Shown: one piece after another, positions 4,201-17,668 of the stretch
Numbering within the stretch: position 1 is the first letter of the stretch
Layout: each line of letters begins with the position of its first letter
Assembly: GCA_023898425.1 (NCBI GenBank)
Contig: CP060222.1
Span: 900,001 to 932,000, forward strand
Direction: 5' to 3'
Length of the DNA stretch: 32,000 bases
Origin: Candidatus Saccharimonadota bacterium
GTDB lineage: Bacteria; Patescibacteriota; Patescibacteriia; 2-12-FULL-60-25
Program-made: the position numbers and the translations under genes
The notes under the pieces: model-generated
Seen by the model: the letters and a program-made list of their open reading frames with translations, nothing else
Databases searched by the model: none
Told to the model about the DNA's origin: nothing

Positions 4201-5245
4201 GGTTATTGCGATTAATAACACGACGATAAAGATCATTGAGATCTGAGGTCGCAAAGCGTCCACCGTCGAGAGCCACCATCGGACGTAGGTCTGGTGGGAT
4301 CACTGGTAAGACCTTTAAGACCATCCAGGATGGATCAATTTGATTTTGTACGAGTGATTTCAAAAGCTTCAAACGACGCGTAAGTTTATCGTGTTTTGCT
4401 TCTGATGCATCTTTAAGTGCTTCGCTGAGATTAGCAACAGTTGCCTGAAGATCAATGGAGCTCAAAAGCGCATTAACAGCTTCTGAACCGATTTTTGCTT
4501 CAAAAACATGACCGTACTTTAGCGAAAGTTCGTGATATTCGGTTTCTGTAAGAATCTTAAGAGGTTTAAGATCTTTGAGCTCTTTATCGGCGATATCAAA
4601 GTCCGCATCAAGTTCTTCGAGACGGCGCGTTTGTTCTTCTTGCGCTTTGTCCATCTCTTTGTTCAATTTTCCAGCATCCCAGCTTTGCTCGGTTGCTTGC
4701 TTTTGAAGACGTTCGCGATTACGTTCGCCTTCTGATTCGATGCCTTTGCGTTTGCCTTTATACTCGGCGCGTACCATTTCTACTGTTTGCTCACGAAGAG
4801 TTTCGTCAACAGCCGTGATAATGAATACAGTGAAGTAAATCACTTTTTCGAGTGATTGAATGGACATGTCGAGCACCATACCGATTTTGGATGGCACAGA
4901 ACGCAAGAACCAAATATGTGTAACAGGCGCTGCAAGCTCAATGTGACCCATACGTTCGCGACGAACGAGTGAGTGCGTGACTTCAACGCCACATTTGTCA
5001 CAAATAATGCCTTTGTAACGAATCTTCTTATACTTACCACAATAACACTCCCAGTCTTTTGACGGACCGAAAATTTCTTCAGCAAAGAGACCGCTCTTTT
5101 CTGGTTTTTGTGTGCGGTAGTTAATGGTCTCCGGTTTGGTGACTTCACCATAAGACCAGCCGCGAATCACCTCAGGAGAGGCGACGCGCAAGCGGATAGA
5201 ATCAAAGTCCGTGGACTTGATATGTTCCGTGTGGAAATAGGCCAT
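1259..5245 (-). CDS. rpoC: DNA-directed RNA polymerase subunit beta-prime
   Basis: 1328-aa ORF with the catalytic NADFDGDQM motif, an N-terminal Zn-finger ([23 protein letters not shown]), and position directly after rpoB. Confidence 0.97.
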
Positions 5246-8918: not shown

Positions 8919-9030
8919 ATTCTCGATTAAAAGTTGGTGTATAGCATTGCAGTGAAAGGGGATCAATCTTTCACGAAAGCCGTGACAGGAGTCTGCGCAG
9001 ACACCTGTCAAGCCGCGTGGTTTCGTGCGG

Positions 9031-9059
9031 ATATTAACAAGAAAGAACCGTCAAGTCAA
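9031..9059 (-). promoter_or_regulatory. sigma70-type promoter reading toward rpoB
   Basis: Minus strand: TTGACT (9059-9054), 17-nt spacer, TAATAT (9036-9031). Confidence 0.5.
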
Positions 9060-9218
9060 GCGAATGGTTATAACGAACCTTTTTGTCAATTTTGGCTGTA
9101 GAAAGTCAAAATTGTGCTTTTTCACTATAGAAATAAAAGCGATTATCCACAGAGTCATTACAGGACCCTTTATTAACGATCGAGTCGTGTTATAGGATGA
9201 ATAGTGACAACACGTATG

Positions 9219-9247
9219 TTGACAATAATACTGTTTTAGTATATATT
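9219..9247 (+). promoter_or_regulatory. near-consensus sigma70 promoter P1
   Basis: TTGACA (9219-9224), 17-nt spacer, TATATT (9242-9247). Confidence 0.6.
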
Positions 9248-9310
9248 ATGCAGGCACATTTCTCATTTTCGGCGAATTGCCAGAAAGAAGGTCCCGTGGA
9301 GGAATTGATC

Positions 9311-9985
9311 ATGAAGAACGGTGTGTGGAAGCACAAGCCCCCGACCGAGAAGATCCCCAAGCAGACCATCCGGCATCACGCCACCTTCCGTCGACTGGAT
9401 ATCTGGGAGACCCGTGAAAACGAACGCAACGCGTTCAACGGAGATTCGGCCGAACTTCAGCGGAAAATGATCCGCTTGGAAGATCAGCTCGAGGCTGGAT
9501 ACATGGACGAAGAGTCCATCCTCAAGGCGCTCGAGCGCATCACTCGTGAGATCAAAGATCTGATCAACGAGGGCAATCGGATCCTCTCGAACCAGAGAGG
9601 CTACCTTGGTCTCGCGCTGGAACTGGATACCATCTACATCCAACTCCAGACATGGAAGACCTGGATCAAGCCCCTGAAACGCCAACTGCGCAAGCAGAAG
9701 GCCACGGTCTTCATCATGAAGATGAAAAAGGCAGAACGCGACCTCGACGTGTTCGACCCCACTCACGCCCCGCAGATGTGGCGCGCCAAGCTGATGCTTC
9801 CGCGCAAGCCGGGTCGCTGCGGGTACAAGAGCGCGCACTACTTCATCCCGGGCAAGCACAAGCACACCCGGGTTGAGCGGTCCTTCGTCGAAGAAAGCCG
9901 CTACGGCAAGAAGGGCCAGCGCTACAGCGCGGCTCGCAAAGAGCGCGAAGACGAGCGCATGACGCTCATCAGCCAAATGGCCTAG
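9311..9985 (+). CDS. orphan protein A (224 aa), coiled-coil-like middle, basic C-terminal module shared with protein B
   Basis: GGAGGA SD at 9298-9303, 7 nt before the ATG at 9311. GC3-biased frame. The track start at 9197 lies in the AT-rich promoter, so I moved the start. Confidence 0.6.
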   Translation: MKNGVWKHKPPTEKIPKQTIRHHATFRRLDIWETRENERNAFNGDSAELQRKMIRLEDQLEAGYMDEESILKALERITREIKDLINEGNRILSNQRGYLGLALELDTIYIQLQTWKTWIKPLKRQLRKQKATVFIMKMKKAERDLDVFDPTHAPQMWRAKLMLPRKPGRCGYKSAHYFIPGKHKHTRVERSFVEESRYGKKGQRYSAARKEREDERMTLISQMA

Positions 9986-10003
9986 CACTTTTCAACACTG
10001 CTG

Positions 10004-10046
10004 AATCCCCCACTCACTGCTGAGTTGGGGGATTTTGCGTTTTTTA
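10004..10046 (+). terminator. intrinsic terminator after protein A gene
   Basis: AATCCCCCACTCA / TGAGTTGGGGGATT stem followed by TTGCGTTTTTT. Confidence 0.65.
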
Positions 10047-10073
10047 GACACTGTGTTTATGACAATTAAAATA

Positions 10074-10102
10074 TTGACAAATTATTATAAATAAGCTATC
10101 TT
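10074..10102 (+). promoter_or_regulatory. near-consensus sigma70 promoter P2
   Basis: TTGACA (10074-10079), 17-nt AT-only spacer, TATCTT (10097-10102). Confidence 0.55.
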
Positions 10103-10123
10103 GTACCGGTACATTTTAGGCGA

Positions 10124-10633
10124 ATGTCGCCAGATTGGAGTCTAATGTCGAGCAACGAGAAGTCCTGGAACGACATGTCGATGGATGAGCCCCTCGATGA
10201 CGCGGGGTATAACCCCAGTCTATTCGAGGACTTCGACTTCGATGATTTCGACGATCATCATGAGTACGATGATCATTTCGAAGATACCTTCAGGGATGCC
10301 TTCGACGAGTTCGAAGACTACCCCAAGGAGACCGCCTCCTACATCGACAAGCTCGAGGAGGAGCGCAAGGACTGGGAGTTCGAGGTCGAAGCATGGGCAG
10401 AACAGCTCGAACTTCTCGATCCCACTCTGGATCCGAAGATGTGGCGCGCACGCGAAGGCTGTGGCACCAATTGCTTCAACTTTGTGCCTGGCACGGGCAA
10501 GAAGCTTGACGTCCAGTCGTGCCGCAACTACGGTCATCGCTCCGGCTACAAGCCCCGTCTCCGCAATAAGGAGCGGATGCGTGAACGCGAGATCTGGCGC
10601 GAACGTCAGCTCGAACAGGCCTTCAGCGCCTGA
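10124..10633 (+). CDS. orphan protein B (169 aa), extremely acidic N-terminal half, C-terminal module paralogous to protein A
   Basis: GC3-biased ORF. An alternative start at ATG 10145 is preceded by GGAG. Shares DPTxxPxMWRA and CGxxxxxF(I/V)PGxxK motifs with protein A. Confidence 0.6.
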   Translation: MSPDWSLMSSNEKSWNDMSMDEPLDDAGYNPSLFEDFDFDDFDDHHEYDDHFEDTFRDAFDEFEDYPKETASYIDKLEEERKDWEFEVEAWAEQLELLDPTLDPKMWRAREGCGTNCFNFVPGTGKKLDVQSCRNYGHRSGYKPRLRNKERMREREIWRERQLEQAFSA

Positions 10634-10643
10634 CACTACTACA

Positions 10644-10697
10644 AGCCCCGCCTCTAACCACATTCTGTGGCTTAGAGGCGGGGCTATTTGTGTTGTG
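10644..10697 (+). terminator. intrinsic terminator after protein B gene
   Basis: 14-bp perfect stem AGCCCCGCCTCTAA / TTAGAGGCGGGGCT followed by ATTTGTGTTGTG. Confidence 0.6.
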
Positions 10698-10709
10698 TAA
10701 ACAATCATC

Positions 10710-10738
10710 TTGACAGAATGTCGATAATAGGCTATATT
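10710..10738 (+). promoter_or_regulatory. near-consensus sigma70 promoter P3
   Basis: TTGACA (10710-10715), 17-nt spacer, TATATT (10733-10738). Confidence 0.55.
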
Positions 10739-10771
10739 CTCACCGTGTTTACCCACGTCGCCGATGGCGAA

Positions 10772-11293
10772 ATGGTCGGTCAGGTTTCGCGCCTGGCTCA
10801 ATACAAGAACCTTTTGCTCCGTGATCAACTCACGGACGATCCCAAGCTTCGGATGTTGGGCGAGCTCGCACTCGTGACCGACATCACGAAGAAGCTCTTC
10901 GCAGAAAAGGGTGCCAATCCACCCTTGAAACTGCTCTACACTCTTCTATCGTTCACGTCTGAGATGGACGAGAATGATGAAGACTGTTGGGTGCAGTGGG
11001 AGGAACTCCCCGAAGAGAAGCGTCTTCTCACGGAACTCCGTTGGGATCTCGAGGCCATGGAGCCCAACTCGTGCTACTGCGCGCGTTGCCGTGGTGTCGA
11101 GGAAGACGACGTCCCGCCCCTCAAAGTCTTCACGCCTACCGCAGACATGCGCTTGGCGGCGAAGAGGGAGAAAACGCTCCGCAATGGCGGGCGGCGGGTA
11201 CGGCGGAGCACGAATGAGGACGAGGCTGAAGAGCTGACTCCGAAGCGTAGCCTTCGCGACTTTCGTCGCGGAGCCGACTCCGTTTCCTGGTGA
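10772..11293 (+). CDS. orphan protein C (173 aa from ATG 10772; start uncertain)
   Basis: GC3-biased ORF downstream of P3. The track start at 10688 lies upstream of the promoter. Contains a CYCARC cysteine cluster and a basic tail. No family recognised. Confidence 0.5.
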   Translation: MVGQVSRLAQYKNLLLRDQLTDDPKLRMLGELALVTDITKKLFAEKGANPPLKLLYTLLSFTSEMDENDEDCWVQWEELPEEKRLLTELRWDLEAMEPNSCYCARCRGVEEDDVPPLKVFTPTADMRLAAKREKTLRNGGRRVRRSTNEDEAEELTPKRSLRDFRRGADSVSW

Positions 11294-11300
11294 GAAACTG

Positions 11301-11352
11301 ACCCTGTCCCAAACTGTGATCTTCATGGTTTGGGACGGGGTCTTGTAATTTC
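11301..11352 (+). terminator. intrinsic terminator after protein C gene
   Basis: ACCCTGTCCCAAAC / GTTTGGGACGGGGT stem followed by CTTGTAATTTCT. Confidence 0.55.
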
Positions 11353-11386
11353 TGCATACTTTCTCCCTCGATGCCCCCTACCCCTG

Positions 11387-11416
11387 CCCCTTCTACCTTT
11401 GTGGAGGGGGTTTTAT
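11387..11416 (+). terminator. second terminator-like hairpin
   Basis: CCCCTTC / GGAGGGG stem followed by GTTTTATGG. Confidence 0.35.
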
Positions 11417-11438
11417 GGTAAAAATAAACCCTATATAC

Positions 11439-11467
11439 TTGATTTTTTGTCAAAAATATGCTATACT
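11439..11467 (+). promoter_or_regulatory. sigma70 promoter P4a
   Basis: TTGATT (11439-11444), 17-nt spacer, TATACT (11462-11467). Confidence 0.45.
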
Positions 11468-11525
11468 TATATCGTAATACAGTGACGTATGGATGCACTT
11501 TCAACCCATATATTAGACATATAAC

Positions 11526-11537
11526 GCTAATATTAGC
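11526..11537. promoter_or_regulatory. perfect 12-bp palindrome, candidate operator
   Basis: GCTAATATTAGC is its own reverse complement. A related half-site, CGCTAATGTTA, lies about 30 nt downstream. Both sit between P4a and P4b. Confidence 0.3.
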
Positions 11538-11583
11538 CAAATATAATAAATAATCGCTAATGTTATAAAAGAAAAGCATTAAC

Positions 11584-11612
11584 TTGACAGTTTATACGGT
11601 ACATGGTATAGT
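11584..11612 (+). promoter_or_regulatory. near-consensus sigma70 promoter P4b with extended -10
   Basis: TTGACA (11584-11589), 17-nt spacer ending in TGG, TATAGT (11607-11612). Confidence 0.6.
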
Positions 11613-11618
11613 AATACG

Positions 11619-11763
11619 TCGAGGATGAAACAGCCTTACATTTAAAGAGCTAGTCACAGTGGAGAGCTTGGACAGCAATGAACGAACTTACCGGCCATTA
11701 GGGCTAGGTGTAGCGATTATTGTTTTGCTCAATTCACTTGTGACGTTATCAACGTCATTTTTT
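11619..11763 (+). ncRNA. candidate small RNA of about 145 nt (P4b to first terminator)
   Basis: Predicted TSS is about 7 nt after the -10. No ORF. The region ends in a TGACGTT-ATC-AACGTCA hairpin plus TTTTTT (11741-11763). Confidence 0.35.
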
Positions 11764-12247
11764 GTTGTCTTGATCGTTTTGGAGGAGGCAAGCAGATGAA
11801 CGATGTGAGAATCCGGTTTCGACTGGGATCTCTCATCTGCAATCTGTTACGGATTCAACCGCTTCGGCGGATTTGAGCCACTTCTCGTTGGATCTTTATC
11901 CGATGAGTCGCCGCCTCTAAAACGATCATCGCAACAGAGAAAGACGGGTGGAGAAGAACCTCACAGGCAACCGAACATGGTGCGTCTGTGAGCGGTAGGC
12001 AAAATTAGACTCGGTGGTTTCGACTGCCAACTCTAACATGTAGCCCACCACACGCAGGCAATGCCCTCGGGTATTCGCCCGCCTCTTCTTCAACCGTCTT
12101 TCTCTCGTTCACCATCATCCTGCTTTCATTTCTATCTCTGATCCTTTTGCTCCACGAATGCGTTCGTGCCAGCCAAGAGTTGATCGAGAAAGAAATGAGA
12201 GCGGGACGTGCGATTTTGCACCTTACAGTCCGCTCCAAAGGCAAAAG
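11764..12247 (+). ncRNA. long GC-balanced non-coding stretch; candidate structured RNA or 5' leader of the downstream operon
   Basis: No plus-strand track ORF of 60 codons or more starts between 10988 and 12146. The sampled line at 11881 is about 48% G+C, unlike the AT-rich spacers. Helices: cUUCGg hairpin 11859-11870, CTCACAG/CTGTGAG 11960-11992, GGTGG/CCACC 12013-12049, and a hairpin at 12057-12079. Confidence 0.35.
11796..11876 (+). CDS. 26-codon sORF (MNDVRIRFRLGSLICNLLRIQPLRRI) with strong SD; possible leader peptide or small toxin-like peptide
   Basis: GGAGGAGG at 11781-11788 lies 7 nt before the ATG at 11796. Too short to judge coding potential. Confidence 0.25.
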   Translation: MNDVRIRFRLGSLICNLLRIQPLRRI

Positions 12248-12481
12248 ATGTCCAAGAAGATCACCCTTTCGATCTGTGCCTTCTTCTTCACCGTCGTCGG
12301 CGCGATGCACTTCATCGATGTGCCGAACACCAACGAGGAGGAGATCGCGGCGATCAAGAACGGTCGCATCTGCCACCGCGAGAGGTGCACCTTCCTCAAC
12401 GGGCCCTTCACGGGATACGTGAGGTACCAAGTGGATGAAACAGGGTTCATCTATGTCTCTAACGGGACAGCGATGAACTGA
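12248..12481 (+). CDS. small membrane or secreted protein (77 aa)
   Basis: ATG at 12248. N-terminal hydrophobic segment KKITLSICAFFFTVVGAMHFI. GC3-biased frame. Weak SD (AAAGG). Confidence 0.5.
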   Translation: MSKKITLSICAFFFTVVGAMHFIDVPNTNEEEIAAIKNGRICHRERCTFLNGPFTGYVRYQVDETGFIYVSNGTAMN

Positions 12482-12484
12482 GAG

Positions 12485-12623
12485 TCTGAATCCGACATCA
12501 CGAATACTCGTGCTCTGTCGGACTCCCAATCTTGATCAGAACGAATGTTGTGACCAAGACATGGAGTTACAATCCTGCTCTCACTTTTTTGACCGACATC
12601 GCTCGGTACAAAAAGCGAGAGCG
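12485..12623 (+). repeat. intergenic repeat copy R1 (139 nt)
   Basis: Near-identical to 13551-13688. Begins with the hairpin TCCGACA-T-CACGA-ATAC-TCGTG-CTC-TGTCGGA immediately after the upstream stop codon. Confidence 0.85.
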
Positions 12624-12671
12624 GGAACCCCAAGTACAAATTCGTACATTCACACCCGTTCAAAGGAAACT

Positions 12672-13544
12672 ATGACCAAAATCAATTTCGTGCTCGCGTC
12701 TAACCACACCAACCTCGCCACTGCCATCGAAGGCAAGGCGAGCGCCACGGTGGAGGCTGAGTTCGGCGACATCACCGTCGCTGGCTCGGTGCTCACCATG
12801 GCGCATCACGGCGTCAATGCGGGTAACCGCGCGCCGTGCGCGTACCCCAACGGGTGCGCGGAAGGCGTCGAGGTGGTGGGTTTGTCCCACTTCGACCTCG
12901 ACACCCTCGGTGGGTGTGCGGCCGTCATCGGTCGCAAGCCGGAGGCCGAGAGCTTCTGGATTCTCTCCGAGTTCGTGGACCTTAATGGTCCGCACAAGCT
13001 CGGTGTGAGCGGCGCGTCCGACGAGGACATCCGCCGCCTCAACGCCTTCTGGGCGTGGAGCGAAAAGAACCGAGTGTTCGCCAACCGCGACGGCTCGGTG
13101 TCCGACGTGACCGACAAGGTCATCGAGGGCATCGAAGCGCTCGAGAGGATCCTCGCCGACGATGAGCAGATGCTCGTCGCGGGCGACGAGTTCAAGGCGA
13201 AGGGCGACAAGCTCAACGCCGAGAGCTTCGTCGAGTACTACGAGGATCTCCTCGTCCGAGTTTCGCCGAGCTTCACCAACCACCTCTACGTCGCCCCCGA
13301 CGGAAAGGTGGCCAAGGCCGTCATCGCCTTCAACACCCTCAACGGCTCGATCACGATCTCGTTCGCGGATGCGCCCAAGGGCACGAACGCGCGCGACATC
13401 GTGCAGAAGCTGTGGGGGCCCGAAGCTGGCGGTCACGCTGGCATCGCTGGCAGCCCGCGTGACAAGCGGTTGAACCTCGATGACCTGAGCGAAGCGCTCA
13501 GCGCGACGATGCTCGCGCTCGACGAAATGGACAACATTTCGTAG
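12672..13544 (+). CDS. divergent DHH/DHHA1-like phosphoesterase (290 aa), assignment tentative
   Basis: SD AAAGGAAA before the ATG at 12672. SHFDLDTLGG resembles DHH motif I (H..D.D..G). C-terminal GGHAGIAGSP resembles the DHHA1 GGGH..A.G motif of NrnA/RecJ-type enzymes. A canonical DHH triad is not obvious. Confidence 0.45.
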   Translation: MTKINFVLASNHTNLATAIEGKASATVEAEFGDITVAGSVLTMAHHGVNAGNRAPCAYPNGCAEGVEVVGLSHFDLDTLGGCAAVIGRKPEAESFWILSEFVDLNGPHKLGVSGASDEDIRRLNAFWAWSEKNRVFANRDGSVSDVTDKVIEGIEALERILADDEQMLVAGDEFKAKGDKLNAESFVEYYEDLLVRVSPSFTNHLYVAPDGKVAKAVIAFNTLNGSITISFADAPKGTNARDIVQKLWGPEAGGHAGIAGSPRDKRLNLDDLSEALSATMLALDEMDNIS

Positions 13545-13550
13545 AGCAAC

Positions 13551-13688
13551 CTGGATCCGACATCACGAATACTCGTGCTCTGTCGGACTCCCAATCTTGA
13601 TCAGAACGAATGTTGTGACCAAGACATGGAGATAAATCCTGCTCTCACTTTTTTGACCGACATTGCTCGGTACAAAAAGCGAGAGCGG
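13551..13688 (+). repeat. intergenic repeat copy R2 (138 nt)
   Basis: Differs from R1 by one A/G, one C/T, and TTACAA versus ATAAA (a 1-nt indel). Confidence 0.85.
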
Positions 13689-13727
13689 TACGTGCAATCA
13701 CGCACCTTAAAACACGCTCCGGAGATT

Positions 13728-13937
13728 ATGGAAAATTCCATTTCCCGGTCCGAGGCGCGCCACGTGCTCGCCTCATACATGAACGAGGGTGCCCGGCACC
13801 CCCTCTTCACGGAGGCGTGCGCGATCTGTCGCACGACTCCGGAGGCGGTCGAGGCCGCGCGCAAAAGCGTGCGTGGCATCGAGCGCTCGTTCAAGGGAGT
13901 GATCCTCACTCCCTTGGGCGGGCGTCGTCGCAACTAG
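13728..13937 (+). CDS. orphan protein (69 aa)
   Basis: GGAG SD 3 nt before the ATG at 13728. GC3-biased. The track start at 13575 lies inside repeat R2. Confidence 0.45.
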   Translation: MENSISRSEARHVLASYMNEGARHPLFTEACAICRTTPEAVEAARKSVRGIERSFKGVILTPLGGRRRN

Positions 13938-13959
13938 CGACACGACCTCGCACACCTCA

Positions 13960-14000
13960 CTGGATCCGACATCACGAATTCTCGTGCTCTCTCGGACTCC
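13960..14000 (+). repeat. partial repeat copy R3 (hairpin module only, 41 nt)
   Basis: CTGGATCCGACATCACGAATTCTCGTGCTCTCTCGGACTCC matches the first 41 nt of R1/R2 with 2-3 substitutions. Confidence 0.75.
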
Positions 14001-14062
14001 TCCTCTTGTTTATGACATGTCGTCGTAAGCAAGAACGGGAGATATCCCAGAAAGGTTAAGCC

Positions 14063-14329
14063 GTGGAAACAATAAACTCAAATATCAAACGCGGGCGAGA
14101 ACTCATCCATGACGCTGGCCGTCTGGGTGGTCTCGTGGAGAGCGGGTTTCCTCAGTCGAGGGATCTCGCAAATAAACTGCGTCGCATCGCCACGAAGAGC
14201 GATGACGTGCACAGCTGCATCCTTGCCTACGTTCAGGCACAGGGCAACAAGCTCACGGGCACAGAGCGGCGTGGCTTGCAGATTCTTCTTACTCATGAAG
14301 AATTTGCCCAGATCGTGAGCTCAAACTGA
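14063..14329 (+). CDS. orphan protein (88 aa), GTG start
   Basis: GAAAGG SD 7 nt before the GTG at 14063. Ends in tandem TGA TGA stops. Confidence 0.45.
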   Translation: METINSNIKRGRELIHDAGRLGGLVESGFPQSRDLANKLRRIATKSDDVHSCILAYVQAQGNKLTGTERRGLQILLTHEEFAQIVSSN

Positions 14330-14514
14330 TGAGCAATCTGAGTAGAGGCGAAAGACAGTCACTCTGATTTCGCTCCCTCAATCCGTCCATGATTCATTCG
14401 TGGATGAAGAAGGGAAAAATATCTACGCAGCTACCAACAAGGAGGTTGGTGGCGTCGCGGGTATTTTTGCCCGAAAACAAAACAGGCGTAAGGTCTGAGA
14501 AAGTTAAGGTCGTC

Positions 14515-15123
14515 ATGAGCATTGCCATCGCAATAGCCATCGTTCTCATGGAGGAATTCAGTGTGATGATTGGTCAACAGCTGATCATCCAAAGCATGAT
14601 CGACCGCATCGACAAGGTGCGTCGCCATGCTCTCAATCACATTAACGAGCCGAAAATTCTGCTCGATGAAACGTGGTTGATCCCAACGCATGAGTTGTGC
14701 GACGTGCTAGGCGTAGACTCACTGGAAGAGATCCTCTCTTCCAAAATCCGAGGTATTGCGCTCGCACTCGCAGGAAAGAAAGAGTATCATCCTCGTTCGA
14801 TCGCGGGTGGTGCTGAGCAACTCATGGAGTTGCTCCGACCGGCGGCTGATGAAGAGCAGGCGGAAGATGAACGTAAATTACGCAATCGGATTCTCGGTCT
14901 CGCCGCGCGCTATCTGTCAGCATCCGTTGAAGAACGGACAAAGATACTGATTTCTTTGGAGGGCAGTCGAACGCGGGCGCTTAGTGACACTGAGGAGGTA
15001 ACCGAACTCGTACGACTCAGGATCAACGCTGATCACGAGTATGAGCGAGTCTCAAAACAACTCCGTAAACTTCAGGTAAAAAACGGATCACTCCTGAACC
15101 GGAATGTGATCCTCGATGCCTGA
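14515..15123 (+). CDS. orphan protein (about 200 aa; start ambiguous among 14515, 14548 and 14563/14566)
   Basis: Long ORF, helical and charged sequence. GGAGGA at 14550-14555 favours the 14563/14566 starts. No family recognised. Confidence 0.45.
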   Translation: MSIAIAIAIVLMEEFSVMIGQQLIIQSMIDRIDKVRRHALNHINEPKILLDETWLIPTHELCDVLGVDSLEEILSSKIRGIALALAGKKEYHPRSIAGGAEQLMELLRPAADEEQAEDERKLRNRILGLAARYLSASVEERTKILISLEGSRTRALSDTEEVTELVRLRINADHEYERVSKQLRKLQVKNGSLLNRNVILDA

Positions 15124-15231
15124 GTGAACAAGATCTCACGCTCCACACTCATCTCTACCGAGAAGAGGTACGGAGACTCAAAAACAATTCGCTCGAGAAA
15201 TACGAAATCAAGAGCAGCAACAGGAGGCCTC

Positions 15232-15408
15232 ATGAGCTACGTTAGCGCCGCGTTCACCGTGGCATACAATCGCACCTGTGAAGATCTGACCGAAGAAACG
15301 GTCAAGATCGACACAGCACGTCTCGCTGAAAAGCTCGAAGAGAGCGGCGAGTACGACATGGCCATTCGGCTGCGTCGTTCGTCTCGGCCCCCTGGGCCGA
15401 GCAACTAG
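15232..15408 (+). CDS. orphan protein (58 aa)
   Basis: AGGAGG at 15222-15227 lies 4 nt before the ATG at 15232. The track ORF starts earlier, at GTG 15124. Confidence 0.4.
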   Translation: MSYVSAAFTVAYNRTCEDLTEETVKIDTARLAEKLEESGEYDMAIRLRRSSRPPGPSN

Positions 15409-15417
15409 ATGAATCTA

Positions 15418-15460
15418 CTCGGAGGTGTACTATTGCGAACTGCTTTAGTACACCTCCGAG
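15418..15460 (+). other. 13-bp perfect hairpin after the 58-aa ORF (terminator-like, no T-run)
   Basis: CTCGGAGGTGTAC (15418-15430) pairs with GTACACCTCCGAG (15448-15460). Confidence 0.6.
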
Positions 15461-15476
15461 ACCCCCTATTACACTA

Positions 15477-15580
15477 AGCGATATGGAGGAGGCACCTCAA
15501 CAACTTGTTGGGGAAGACAGGCTATTCCTCGGCTGCGGCTGAGCAATTCTCTCCCCCGTCCCATCACCTCCATATCGCTT
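15477..15580 (+). other. long-range 14-bp helix enclosing a 76-nt structured insert (leader of the 398-aa ORF)
   Basis: AAGCGATATGGAGG (15477-15490) pairs perfectly with CCTCCATATCGCTT (15567-15580). Internal hairpins: CAACA-ACT-TGTTG and CTCGGC-TGCG-GCTGAG. Confidence 0.5.
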
Positions 15581-15668
15581 CGTGGAATATCGAAGCAACC
15601 CTCCTCGGGTTTAGAGGAAAAAACGTTCCTTAAAATCCGCAAAGCGGAAGAAAAAGAAAGAGAAAAAA

Positions 15669-16865
15669 ATGTCCCTCAACTTCAGCATCACCAGGAATCC
15701 CAATATCCTTTCGGCGGCAGCCGGTCGTGAGGTGAGTCAGGAGGAGACGAATGACATCGTCGCTCCCCTGGACCACCACTGCGGAGCTCAGTACGAACTT
15801 CGCAACAACCGCCTTTTGCGGCGGCTACAGCTCCAGATCTTCGCCTGCTTGTTGCTGGCGAAGGAAGAGATGTTCGACATGAGCGATGAGCTCATCGAAA
15901 GCAACGGCCTCGACCCCGTTCTTGCGGGGTTCATGAAGGGGCAGGTCCTCAACCAGCGCAGCACGAAGTTGCTCACCATGGTCGACAACCAGGGCGAGCT
16001 CTTCACGCCCCCCATGTTCGTGATGAACATGAACGACCTGACGAAGCCCGGTCGCAAGGATCGTCCGGTCCGCCGTGTGTGGGTGGACGCTCACAACTTC
16101 GATCGCGTCACGGCCAGCAATGGCCAGGTCTCGTCGCGACCAAACCGCGTTGGTACGTTCATGCAACGCGTCAACACGCACGGCACCTTCGAGAACGGTG
16201 GTGAGCGCGACGCGCTCATCATGGGCTTCAGGCCTGAGTTCGAAGAGCGTCGTGACACGGCCGTCATCACGAGCAAGGATCAGGTTCTGAAGAGCTACAT
16301 CCTCCTGGTCGTCGGCGCCAACCTCGATCTGCTCATGCAGATCGTGGACATCGCCGGCGACAGCGTCGCGCCGATGTTCTTCGGTGGCGAGGTAGACCCC
16401 AAGATGGCCTACTTCGGTCCCGTGGAGGTCCAAGACACGAAGGTGTCGACCGACCCGAAGCTCAAGATGGACGAGATCCGCGAGAAGGTGAAGAGCACGA
16501 AGCTGACTCACACCATGGCTCAGGACCTCGAGGGCGTCGTGATCGACGACGAAGACGAGTCGCCCGAGGATAGCTCAGACGACGTGAGCGACGACCTCAG
16601 CGCCAGTGATGGCAACGAGGACGAGACCTCCGATGCCTCCTCGACCGAGGAGAGCGATGGTGACATCGCTCCGCCGGTCGCCAACGAGAAGCGGAGCGAC
16701 GCTCCGCTGACGGCGAAGCAGAAGCGGATGCTCGAGAACAGCGAAGAAGGCAAGACGCCCTCCACTCCTCCCGCCACGACGAAGAAGCCCAAGAAGGCTT
16801 CGACGCCTAGGCAGAAGAAGGGGCTCGAAGACCTGGAAAACGTTCAGCTTCCCAGCGCCGAGTGA
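15669..16865 (+). CDS. orphan protein (398 aa) with acidic Ser/Asp-rich tail followed by a Lys-rich end
   Basis: GC3-biased ORF preceded by a purine-rich leader, GAAGAAAAAGAAAGAGAAAAAAATG. No family recognised. Confidence 0.6.
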   Translation: MSLNFSITRNPNILSAAAGREVSQEETNDIVAPLDHHCGAQYELRNNRLLRRLQLQIFACLLLAKEEMFDMSDELIESNGLDPVLAGFMKGQVLNQRSTKLLTMVDNQGELFTPPMFVMNMNDLTKPGRKDRPVRRVWVDAHNFDRVTASNGQVSSRPNRVGTFMQRVNTHGTFENGGERDALIMGFRPEFEERRDTAVITSKDQVLKSYILLVVGANLDLLMQIVDIAGDSVAPMFFGGEVDPKMAYFGPVEVQDTKVSTDPKLKMDEIREKVKSTKLTHTMAQDLEGVVIDDEDESPEDSSDDVSDDLSASDGNEDETSDASSTEESDGDIAPPVANEKRSDAPLTAKQKRMLENSEEGKTPSTPPATTKKPKKASTPRQKKGLEDLENVQLPSAE

Positions 16866-16912
16866 CCTCACCGCTCCGATTAGCAACTGCTAATCGTTGA
16901 GCAAAAAAACTG

Positions 16913-16958
16913 ACCCCCAGTGTATACCGTATGGTGTACTCTGGGGGTTTTCGTTTTT
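16913..16958. terminator. bidirectional intrinsic terminator at the right island boundary
   Basis: ACCCCCAG...CTGGGGGT extended stem flanked by AAAAAAA upstream and TTTTCGTTTTT downstream. It lies between convergent genes. Confidence 0.7.
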
Positions 16959-16966
16959 CTCTCTTT

Positions 16967-17668
16967 TTATTGCTGTGTACTTGTCGCTGTTAATGCACGC
17001 TCATACATCACACGCCTTACCTCTACCGTCTCTGAACCACGACGACGTTTGGCGGTAATAACCAACATCGTTGTTCCTTGTGGAATACGAATAGTTTGTT
17101 CAAAATCCCCGTCAGGCGAAACCGCTGCTGCTGCGCCATTGATCATCACCAATGCACCGACATCCGTTTTACCTTTAATAAATACTTCCGGCTGATCAAG
17201 CCTCGCACCATCGATAGGCGTTACAATTTGTAGCTCAGGCGCGCTTGTAATGGTGCGTGCTTGATACACAACATATCCGCCAAGCGCCAAAATAAAGAGA
17301 GCAAATCCTGCTGCGGCAAATAAACGTGGCGTAACAAGAAAAGCGCTAGCGGCTACTTTTACCGGTCGAGGTAAAAATTGCGAGGCGTCTTTTTCAATTT
17401 TTCGTAACCGTAATCCATCACGGTATTTGTGTAAGTAATAACTCTCGCTTACACCAAAACGCGAGACATACATTTTTAATAATCGCTCTACGTATGCAGG
17501 ATCTGGTAACTCTGACCAACGTTCGCCTTCGAGCGCACGAATAAAACCAGGGGTCAGCTTTGAAAGCTTGGCTGCTTCTTCGACGCTTAATCCCGCGCGC
17601 TCACGTAACTCAATAAGATCTGGACCAAGCGCTGCTGTTCCGTTTACTTTTTTTAAGATAAAAGCCAT
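16967..17668 (-). CDS. RodZ-like helix-turn-helix membrane protein
   Basis: N-terminal HTH (LRERAGLSVEEAAKLSKLTPGFIRALEG), a single TM segment (LFAAAGFALFILALGGYVVY), and an extracytoplasmic C-terminal domain. Confidence 0.6.
   Translation of the reverse strand: MAFILKKVNGTAALGPDLIELRERAGLSVEEAAKLSKLTPGFIRALEGERWSELPDPAYVERLLKMYVSRFGVSESYYLHKYRDGLRLRKIEKDASQFLPRPVKVAASAFLVTPRLFAAAGFALFILALGGYVVYQARTITSAPELQIVTPIDGARLDQPEVFIKGKTDVGALVMINGAAAAVSPDGDFEQTIRIPQGTTMLVITAKRRRGSETVEVRRVMYERALTATSTQQ

Follow-up and report, generated by a model that had tools for sequence, protein, structure and literature searches.

Large structured bacterial RNAs outside the known families are, to our knowledge, rare. 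The RNA described here comes from an ultra-small bacterium, a Candidatus Saccharimonadota member of the Patescibacteria, which are abundant, mostly uncultured and host-dependent. It lies in a window of 32,000 nucleotides (nt), which is the whole stretch of DNA that was analysed (assembly GCA_023898425.1, contig CP060222.1, positions 900,001 to 932,000). Positions 11584-12105 of the window encode a conserved, structured, non-coding RNA of ~490 nt on the plus strand, composed of a 5' attenuator-like module followed by two junction modules, B and C. Four kinds of described systems are close enough to be compared with it.

The first are transcription attenuators and riboswitch platforms. As in these, the 5' arm of a terminator pairs alternatively with an upstream strand, both helices and the hairpin between them are conserved, and the unit sits after a promoter and before genes. 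Unlike them, the window RNA has no match to a known aptamer and no conserved leader peptide, its downstream genes are variable and without a known function, and ~340 nt of further conserved structure lie 3' of the terminator. The second are tandem-aptamer leaders (glycine riboswitch, tandem T-boxes), which also have two similar domains behind one promoter; in addition, one lineage of the modules sits upstream of a glycyl-tRNA synthetase (GlyRS) gene. The modules differ from tandem aptamers in their ~170-nt units, built on a four-way junction and closed by a long helix, in the failure of the Rfam models, in a copy number of 1, 2 or 3, and in associated genes that are mutually unrelated.

The ornate RNAs OLE, GOLLD, ROOL, HEARO and raiA, each of which opened new biology, are the third kind. 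They share with the window RNA a length of several hundred nucleotides, several domains and strong covariation, as well as discovery by comparison, no obvious function and a variable or island-like context. The window RNA, in contrast, fits none of their models, is built from a repeated module and is found on few Patescibacteria contigs. The last kind are precursors processed by ribonuclease III (RNase III), such as ribosomal RNA (rRNA) operons, where the 16S and 23S rRNAs are cut from a precursor by this enzyme, and the early transcripts of phage T7. Tandem promoters, long helices enclosing domains and long hairpins between genes of the same transcript are common to these and to the locus described here, but the domains enclosed here are ~120 nt and not rRNA, and their cleavage is only predicted. 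A literature search for a Patescibacteria-specific non-coding RNA class and for the motif string found nothing relevant.

Conservation and covariation of the RNA

An earlier note, made from the letters of this DNA alone, had described ~630 nt (11619-12247) as promoter-driven sequence of balanced base composition, free of open reading frames (ORFs), and had suggested a small RNA together with a large structured RNA or leader. Nearly all the features that it listed were found again within one base of the positions given. Its account of the composition was confirmed: G+C content is 48.8% over 11619-12247 and 26.9% in the upstream spacer (11412-11612), and no plus-strand ORF of at least 60 codons starts between 10988 and 12146. 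The region has a minimum free energy of -262.9 kcal/mol on the plus strand, against -186.3 +/- 7.6 kcal/mol for dinucleotide shuffles (z = -10.0), and of -234.7 kcal/mol (z = -7.1) on the minus strand. The folding advantage of the plus strand is clearest at 11601-11900.

Eleven related loci from metagenomes or metagenome-assembled genomes carry the RNA, and its known carriers amount to about a dozen contigs, representing three lineages. The closest, L034 (GCA_020429715.1), carries the same gene block in the same position and is 98% identical over window positions 9000-12236. A second lineage (L035-L037) also has the block in the same position and is 82% identical over 11448-12105. A scan of metagenome contigs for two copies of the hairpin described below uncovered five further full-length homologues (L042, L043, L045-L047), and look-ups of the upstream protein added three more (L051-L053). 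In the homologue alignment conservation begins at the -35 hexamer of the promoter and ends abruptly at 12105, beyond which at least three unrelated sequences follow. The structured RNA proposed earlier holds up as far as 12105, and what lies at 12108-12220 is a separate hairpin of a repeated type.

The RNA is better conserved than the genes around it. Between the two main lineages it is 86% identical, against 74-76% for the adjacent genes at the nucleotide level; the RNA of L052 is 96% identical to that of the window, but the upstream protein there is only 42% identical. The differences between the main lineages affect 8.7% of paired and 24% of unpaired positions.

Covariation was analysed in an alignment of nine sequences, representing only three or four lineages. 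The RNAalifold consensus contains 161 pairs, with 99.6% of cells paired, and compensatory double changes occur at 13 pairs (28 cells). When the partners were slid by 1-3 columns, 0-1 compensatory pairs remained and pairing fell to 33-48%; none of 500 column shuffles matched the observed values. One loop changes from UUCG to CUUG in L043, both of which are unusually stable tetraloops. This covariation bears out the suggestion of a large structured RNA or leader, the large part being two four-way-junction modules. The hairpins noticed earlier at 11859-11870, 11960-11992, 12013-12049 and 12057-12079 all belong to the conserved consensus structure. A proposed AATCCG/CGGATT pairing is absent from it, and AAUCCGG pairs locally with CUGGGAU instead.

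Promoters and control region

The RNA is preceded by a near-consensus, conserved promoter, P1 (TTGACA-17-TGgTATAGT with an extended -10 TG, plus strand, 11584-11612), in agreement with the promoter-driven character claimed before. The -35 box and the TG are invariant across all homologues and the spacer is variable, which matches the expectation for a working promoter. Transcription is predicted to start at about 11618-11620. An upstream promoter-like site on the same strand, P2 (TTGATT-17-TATACT with TG, 11439-11467), retains its TGnTATACT part in the L035 and L047 lineages.

The conserved, AT-rich control region (11412-11612) contains a perfect palindrome, GCTAATATTAGC (11526-11537), which reads as a candidate operator. 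In relatives, TTAGCCAA/TTGGCTAA inverted repeats hold the same place in the control region, and these are likely operator sites for a putative regulator. Downstream of the RNA promoter and its upstream partner, no further sigma-70-like promoter occurs on the plus strand in the window, L035 or L047. From the attenuator to the end of the block, a simple scan of the window and L047 found no convincing plus-strand terminator; the one weak match in the window, of 5 bp at 12068, is within module C, and the L047 block is closed by a strong terminator. In L035 a weak 7-bp terminator-like match (9865-9881) comes right after the 3' end of the RNA.

The 5' module

The 5' attenuator module (plus strand, 11619-11763) is ~145 nt long and consists of a hairpin (11674-11724) and two mutually exclusive helices. 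The hairpin is nearly invariant, sits between the antiterminator arms and is likely the sensor. The antiterminator helix (arms 11648-11659 and 11738-11747) has 10 pairs, which are 100% paired in the nine sequences, with one compensatory and two one-sided changes. Its formation consumes the 5' arm of an intrinsic terminator (11740-11763; stem 11740-11746/11752-11758, U6 11758-11763), the contested bases being 11740-11747. The terminator shows one U-A to C-G change across lineages.

Both helices are intact in 9/9 sequences, and base 11746 co-varies with its partner in the terminator as well as in the antiterminator. The consensus energies of the two forms are close, at -38.7 kcal/mol with the terminator and -37.0 kcal/mol with the antiterminator. 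A G+C-containing hairpin therefore stands directly before a U run and competes with a conserved, mutually exclusive antiterminator, with a caveat that this evidence comes from only two main lineages. The layout is that of a candidate terminator/antiterminator switch. The hairpin followed by six T residues had been placed correctly to within one base by the earlier note (stem 11740-11758, T6 11758-11763). Its reading of the 145 nt as a terminated small RNA (sRNA) gains a terminator with a covarying stem but, given the competing antiterminator, the segment is better read as an attenuator.

Modules B and C

Each of the two downstream modules has a closing helix of 18-22 bp, in which a Shine-Dalgarno-like (A)UGGAGG strand is paired with CCUCCA, and three hairpins, one of them tipped by a GGUUUCGACUG UUCG-loop hairpin. 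Module B is a junction domain on the plus strand (11765-11932) closed by 11771-11789/11910-11928 (GAUCGUUUUGGAGGAGGC / GCCGCCUCUAAAACGAUC); its consensus hairpins are at 11792-11848, 11851-11879 and 11884-11907. The tip of its first arm, CCGGU-UUCG-ACUGG (11813-11826), is invariant in all homologues. Module C is a four-way junction on the same strand (11934-12107) with a 22-bp closing helix (11936-11957/12084-12105) and consensus hairpins at 11960-11992, 11994-12049 and 12054-12082. A second UUCG hairpin, GGUGGU-UUCG-ACUGCC (12013-12028), tips its middle arm. The 11-mer GGTTTCGACTG, reported before as occurring twice, is indeed present at 11815-11825 and 12016-12026. In length and form, closing helices of 18-22 bp match RNase III substrates; here 18+5 bp and 22 bp are observed, and cleavage of them by RNase III is a proposal only.

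A wider family of modules

A third, shorter copy of the module is found further along the same block on the plus strand (15470-15586). It has the closing helix (AAGCGAUAUGGAGG/CCUCCAUAUCGCUU) and the middle arm, with a different tip hairpin, and lies 82 nt upstream of a 398-aa gene in a 260-nt spacer that folds with z = -7.6. This copy is conserved, with five compensatory pairs, in L034, L035, L047 and L038.

A pattern scan uncovered L044/L050, from a different organism whose nearest named relatives are also Patescibacteria. The L044 locus (4520-4990, minus strand) contains a strong promoter, two tandem units of ~176 nt and a strong terminator, and is placed between frr and the glycine-tRNA ligase gene. 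At L138 (1917-2210) a single module follows a promoter downstream of frr, and an orphan 154-aa gene starts 58 nt later. The L138 and L044 promoters are of the TTGACA-17-TGnTATAGT type and stand directly before the modules.

Two covariance models were compared, R1 built from module C and R2 built only from the two L044 units. R1 matches both L044 units end to end (46 and 40 bits). R2 recognises module C with 68 bits in the window and 66-72 bits across four lineages, and the L138 unit, from a 68%-related organism, with 120 bits; these scores should be read with the caution that the reverse complement of the module also reaches ~40-50 bits, as the long symmetric helices supply much of the score. 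The copy at 15470-15586 (35 bits) and module B (27.2 bits, filters off) are weaker, partial members. In an alignment of seven modules 95% of cells are paired and compensatory changes occur in 37/58 pairs, against 3-9 when slid, with a caveat that this alignment, being fitted to the model, is biased towards the structure. The UGGAG:CUCCA closing pairs and the middle-arm tip are invariant across this alignment, and the (A)UGGAGG/CCUCCA closing helix is present in modules B and C, the 15470-15586 copy, both L044 units and L138. Apart from the different tip of the 15470-15586 copy, the modules have a multi-arm junction with a GGU-UUCG-ACU-type hairpin, and the covariance models recognise each other's modules. 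On these comparisons the modules are a new, previously undescribed family of UGGAG:CUCCA-clamped junction modules with a narrow known distribution.

Two possible associations of the family were tried and rejected. Among 33 genome loci that carry a gene of the DHH family, which also occurs downstream of the window RNA, none contained an RNA homologue by blastn, nhmmer or covariance model, so the RNA is not tied to that gene. The 14-mer CCGGTTTCGACTGG was set aside as a family marker, since most of its occurrences in IMG/VR are ordinary terminator hairpins: 0/80 viral loci with this sequence (L055-L134) match the module model. Many phage contigs contain it as AGCCCGGTTTCGACTGGGCTTTTTT, an intrinsic terminator of typical form with a UUCG loop, and in L048/L049 it is found inside unrelated G+C-rich tandem repeats of ~200 nt. 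Two specific patterns sought in IMG/VR had no match, and blastn found no match for the RNA region in phage and plasmid collections. The genes downstream of the modules revealed no common function.

Known RNA classes

The tandem arrangement of the L044 RNA upstream of the glycine-tRNA ligase gene raises the question of whether a known class has diverged beyond recognition by its models, be it transfer-messenger RNA (tmRNA), RNase P RNA, a tandem glycine riboswitch or T-box, or a large ornate RNA. A putative resemblance of GGUUUCGAC to the tmRNA 5' region and the tRNA T-arm likewise suggests tmRNA. None of the searches agree with this. Rfam 15 (4227 models) gave no matches in the whole window at gathering thresholds. 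A permissive Rfam scan of 11200-12700 produced sub-threshold chance matches only, none inside 11619-12105, and the permissive scans of this region and of the L044 RNA yielded only chance-level matches to microRNAs, leader peptides and sRNAs, with no match to tmRNA, RNase P, glycine, T-box, OLE, GOLLD, ROOL, HEARO or raiA. The glycine riboswitch and T-box models did not match the window RNA or the L044 RNA at E-values up to 5-10. ARAGORN found no tRNA or tmRNA in the window, and the Rfam tmRNA models none either. The narrow distribution and the variable block are also unlike a housekeeping RNA. A diverged known class is the least probable of the explanations considered here, and the earlier statement that the region matches no known RNA class stands.

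TIGR-Tas arrays were set aside as well, on the length of their repeats, which is much shorter than the 170-nt junction unit, and on the lack of a Pfam domain in the block proteins.

Coding potential

A small protein or leader peptide would offer a different explanation, in which the folding is that of a messenger RNA (mRNA), for example of a type I toxin. Two ORFs come into question, one of 26 codons (11796-11876) and a hydrophobic one of 46 codons (11659-11799). The first had been pointed out earlier together with the strongest Shine-Dalgarno sequence of the window. Both the ORF and its GGAGGAGG are present, and in every module B homologue an AUG or GUG follows GGAGGAGG at a distance of 6 nt. 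Long-range pairing keeps this Shine-Dalgarno sequence sequestered, as is the case in type I toxin mRNAs, and the 46-aa ORF has a hydrophobic stretch.

The reading frames, however, are not conserved. In most homologues (L043 and six L035-type sequences) a stop shortens the 26-codon ORF to 14 codons, its product is basic and not hydrophobic, and its differences are compensatory changes of the overlapping hairpin, with no clear third-position bias when counted from the alignment. Indels in L035 disrupt the 46-codon ORF. The 14-mer shared by the L044 units falls into two different frames there, and no start codon follows the UGGAG strand of module C or of the 15470-15586 copy. The coding potential of both small ORFs was rejected on the truncation of one and the frameshift in the other, and no conserved small hydrophobic ORF lies behind the sequestered Shine-Dalgarno sequence. 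GGAGGAGG is a strand of a conserved helix and not a conserved translation start. A coding explanation is scarcely credible.

The orphan gene block and its hairpins

The window belongs to a small-genome bacterium. Its minus-strand genes include RuvC, rpoC and rpoB, and after them come genes for RodZ-like, FtsK, Ugd, ComEC, RecA, YchF and trigger factor proteins. An 8-kb plus-strand gene block (9197-16865) separates rpoB from the RodZ-like gene, with the structured RNA in its middle. The block proteins have no families in Pfam, NCBIfam or PADLOC and one weak match in PHROGs, and these four resources gave no defence-system or mobile-element annotation for them. G+C content is 54% in the block and 44-45% in the flanks. 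Over 9000-17000, windows of 200 nt fold far better than shuffles on both strands, coding parts included; the mean folding z is -3.5 on the plus strand and -2.6 on the minus strand, compared with -0.8 outside the block.

Identity to the closest relative, L034, is mosaic across 9197-16865. Four proteins are 100% identical (genes at 9197, 10124, 10688 and 15669), but a 244-aa and a 94-aa protein are only 68% and 63% identical, which suggests frequent recombination within the block. The 262-aa and 169-aa proteins have a common motif (L-D-P-T...P-x-M-W-R-A) and a 77% identical stretch of DNA (9743-9786, 10406-10449), and are probably paralogues; each of their genes has its own near-consensus TTGACA-17-TAT promoter. 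The family of the upstream 201-aa gene comprises 5 clusters only and gives no functional lead. In two relatives a DUF559-type endonuclease gene (very-short-patch-repair-like) is inserted between this gene and the RNA control region (L035 8716-9075, L047 4356-4715); it is absent from the window.

The 290-aa protein (12672-13544) has more than 800 homologues in Patescibacteria and Clostridia, the nearest in a Candidatus Magasanikbacteria metagenome-assembled genome, and matches no Pfam family above cutoff. Its AlphaFold model has a predicted local distance difference test score (pLDDT) of 95.8, and the best matches among solved structures are DHH/DHHA1 phosphoesterases (NrnA/Pde2, the TM1595 pApA phosphodiesterase, GdpP, RecJ-like). 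Judging from the model, this DHH-fold protein is probably a nanoRNase or a dinucleotide phosphodiesterase. Its family is well conserved and has no Pfam assignment.

A long plus-strand hairpin (12108-12220), separate from the conserved RNA, precedes the 77-aa gene that starts at 12248. Its 3' arm, GAGAGCGGGA, is as at 12610-12626, and the hairpin is related to repeated intergenic units at 12571-12626 and 13635-13688. Such units of ~140 nt recur between the genes (12486-12626, 13551-13688, 13960-14043), with two long hairpins each and copies up to 98% identical; no promoter-like or terminator-like sites were found within them. Their role could be in processing or stability, or they could serve as homology arms for recombination. 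The slot of the 77-aa gene (12237-12485) holds an unrelated 112-aa gene in L034 (9250-9815), and the boundaries of the swap are exact, from the conserved hairpin before the gene to the next repeated unit. L035 lacks the slot and L047 has a membrane-protein gene there. The 77-aa/112-aa swap looks like a cassette-style gene exchange with no recognisable recombinase.

The swap between hairpin units, the sharp end of conservation at 12105 with different genes following by lineage, and the good folding of the block on both strands all fit a role at the DNA level. Hairpins formed in single-stranded DNA would then be sites of recombination or replication, for instance an integron-like attI/attC junction heading a cassette array, or a single-strand origin. 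No integrase, relaxase or Rep protein was found in the block with Pfam, PHROGs, NCBIfam and PADLOC, however, the one weak PHROG match being to an integrase (E = 5e-4), and the block contains no recombinase domain of the kind that accompanies an integron array; attC cores were not looked at closely. The conserved G-U pairs would become C-A mismatches in the opposite strand; these pairs and the better plus-strand energy at 11601-11900 indicate RNA. A conserved promoter stands directly upstream, and related modules elsewhere are found in ordinary 5' leaders. A role as DNA is highly unlikely.

Proposed role of the RNA

The most likely reading, somewhat more probable than not, is that the RNA acts in cis as the leader of a ~5-kb operon whose genes are lineage-specific. 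The strong promoter, probably operator-controlled, would drive an operon made up of the 77-aa gene, the DHH-family phosphoesterase and more orphan genes up to 16865. The terminator/antiterminator switch would set the amount of transcriptional read-through in response to a sensed signal, which, like the action in cis, we infer. The modules would ride at the head of, or inside, a long transcript and act on it after read-through, as platforms for factor binding or as processing or stability elements. The gap between module and gene, with no terminator in it, is 58-82 nt in L138, L047 and the window (15586 to 15669).

Several observations weigh against a cis-acting leader. The ends of the transcript and any processing are predicted from sequence. 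Support for the switch comes from essentially two lineages, with one compensatory event per helix. Modules B and C are downstream of the terminator and therefore cannot control it. The directly downstream gene differs by lineage (77-aa, 112-aa, DHH-family or membrane protein), which is unlike a metabolite riboswitch tied to one pathway. In L044/L054 a strong terminator separates the two modules from the GlyRS gene, and the whole looks like a self-contained RNA gene. The fit of the seven-module alignment to its model belongs here too, as does the 14-mer hairpin, which is also an ordinary phage terminator and so alone proves nothing beyond a very stable hairpin.

The L044/L054 arrangement of a promoter, two modules and a strong terminator is a closed unit, and would suit one or more stand-alone, stable RNAs that act in trans. 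Modules B and C (~120-170 nt each) would be excised at their closing helices from a precursor, as free RNAs or as part of a ribonucleoprotein, with the UUCG hairpins and the UGGAG:CUCCA helix as recognition sites. The 18-22 bp helices that flank each module, and tandem promoters and a leader laid out as in an rrn operon, are consistent with this. So are the far better conservation of the RNA than of its neighbours, the variable downstream gene, and the unchanged sequence of the UGGAG:CUCCA helix and hairpin tip in lineages with hardly any other sequence in common. On the other hand, the modules of the window lineage, of L138 and at 15470-15586 have no terminator behind them, and a gene starts 58-140 nt further on. 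No candidate partner protein is common to the window block and the L044/L138 loci, and the processing is itself a prediction. Action in trans is possible but doubtful, and a leader acting in cis is retained as the preferred account.

Significance

The RNA is filed as a new family within a known kind, that of structured bacterial leaders or non-coding RNAs. Few carriers are known and the function is a proposal. The RNA offers a candidate genetic switch and a module that has invariant elements and is supported by covariation, and strong promoters are clearly linked with it ahead of rapidly exchanging orphan genes. The promoter-leader unit could become an expression tool for the few cultivable Patescibacteria.

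A more far-reaching and rather improbable reading is that the clamped module represents a new Patescibacteria-specific class of functional RNA, which would work in translation or RNA metabolism as either a sensor or an RNA that is excised and stable. If this is true, the sensor could be riboswitch-like or protein-binding, and the invariant closing helix, in sequence a pre-formed Shine-Dalgarno/anti-Shine-Dalgarno duplex, could be read by a ribosome-associated factor. In the window, the module would then couple fast-changing lineage-specific genes to that signal.

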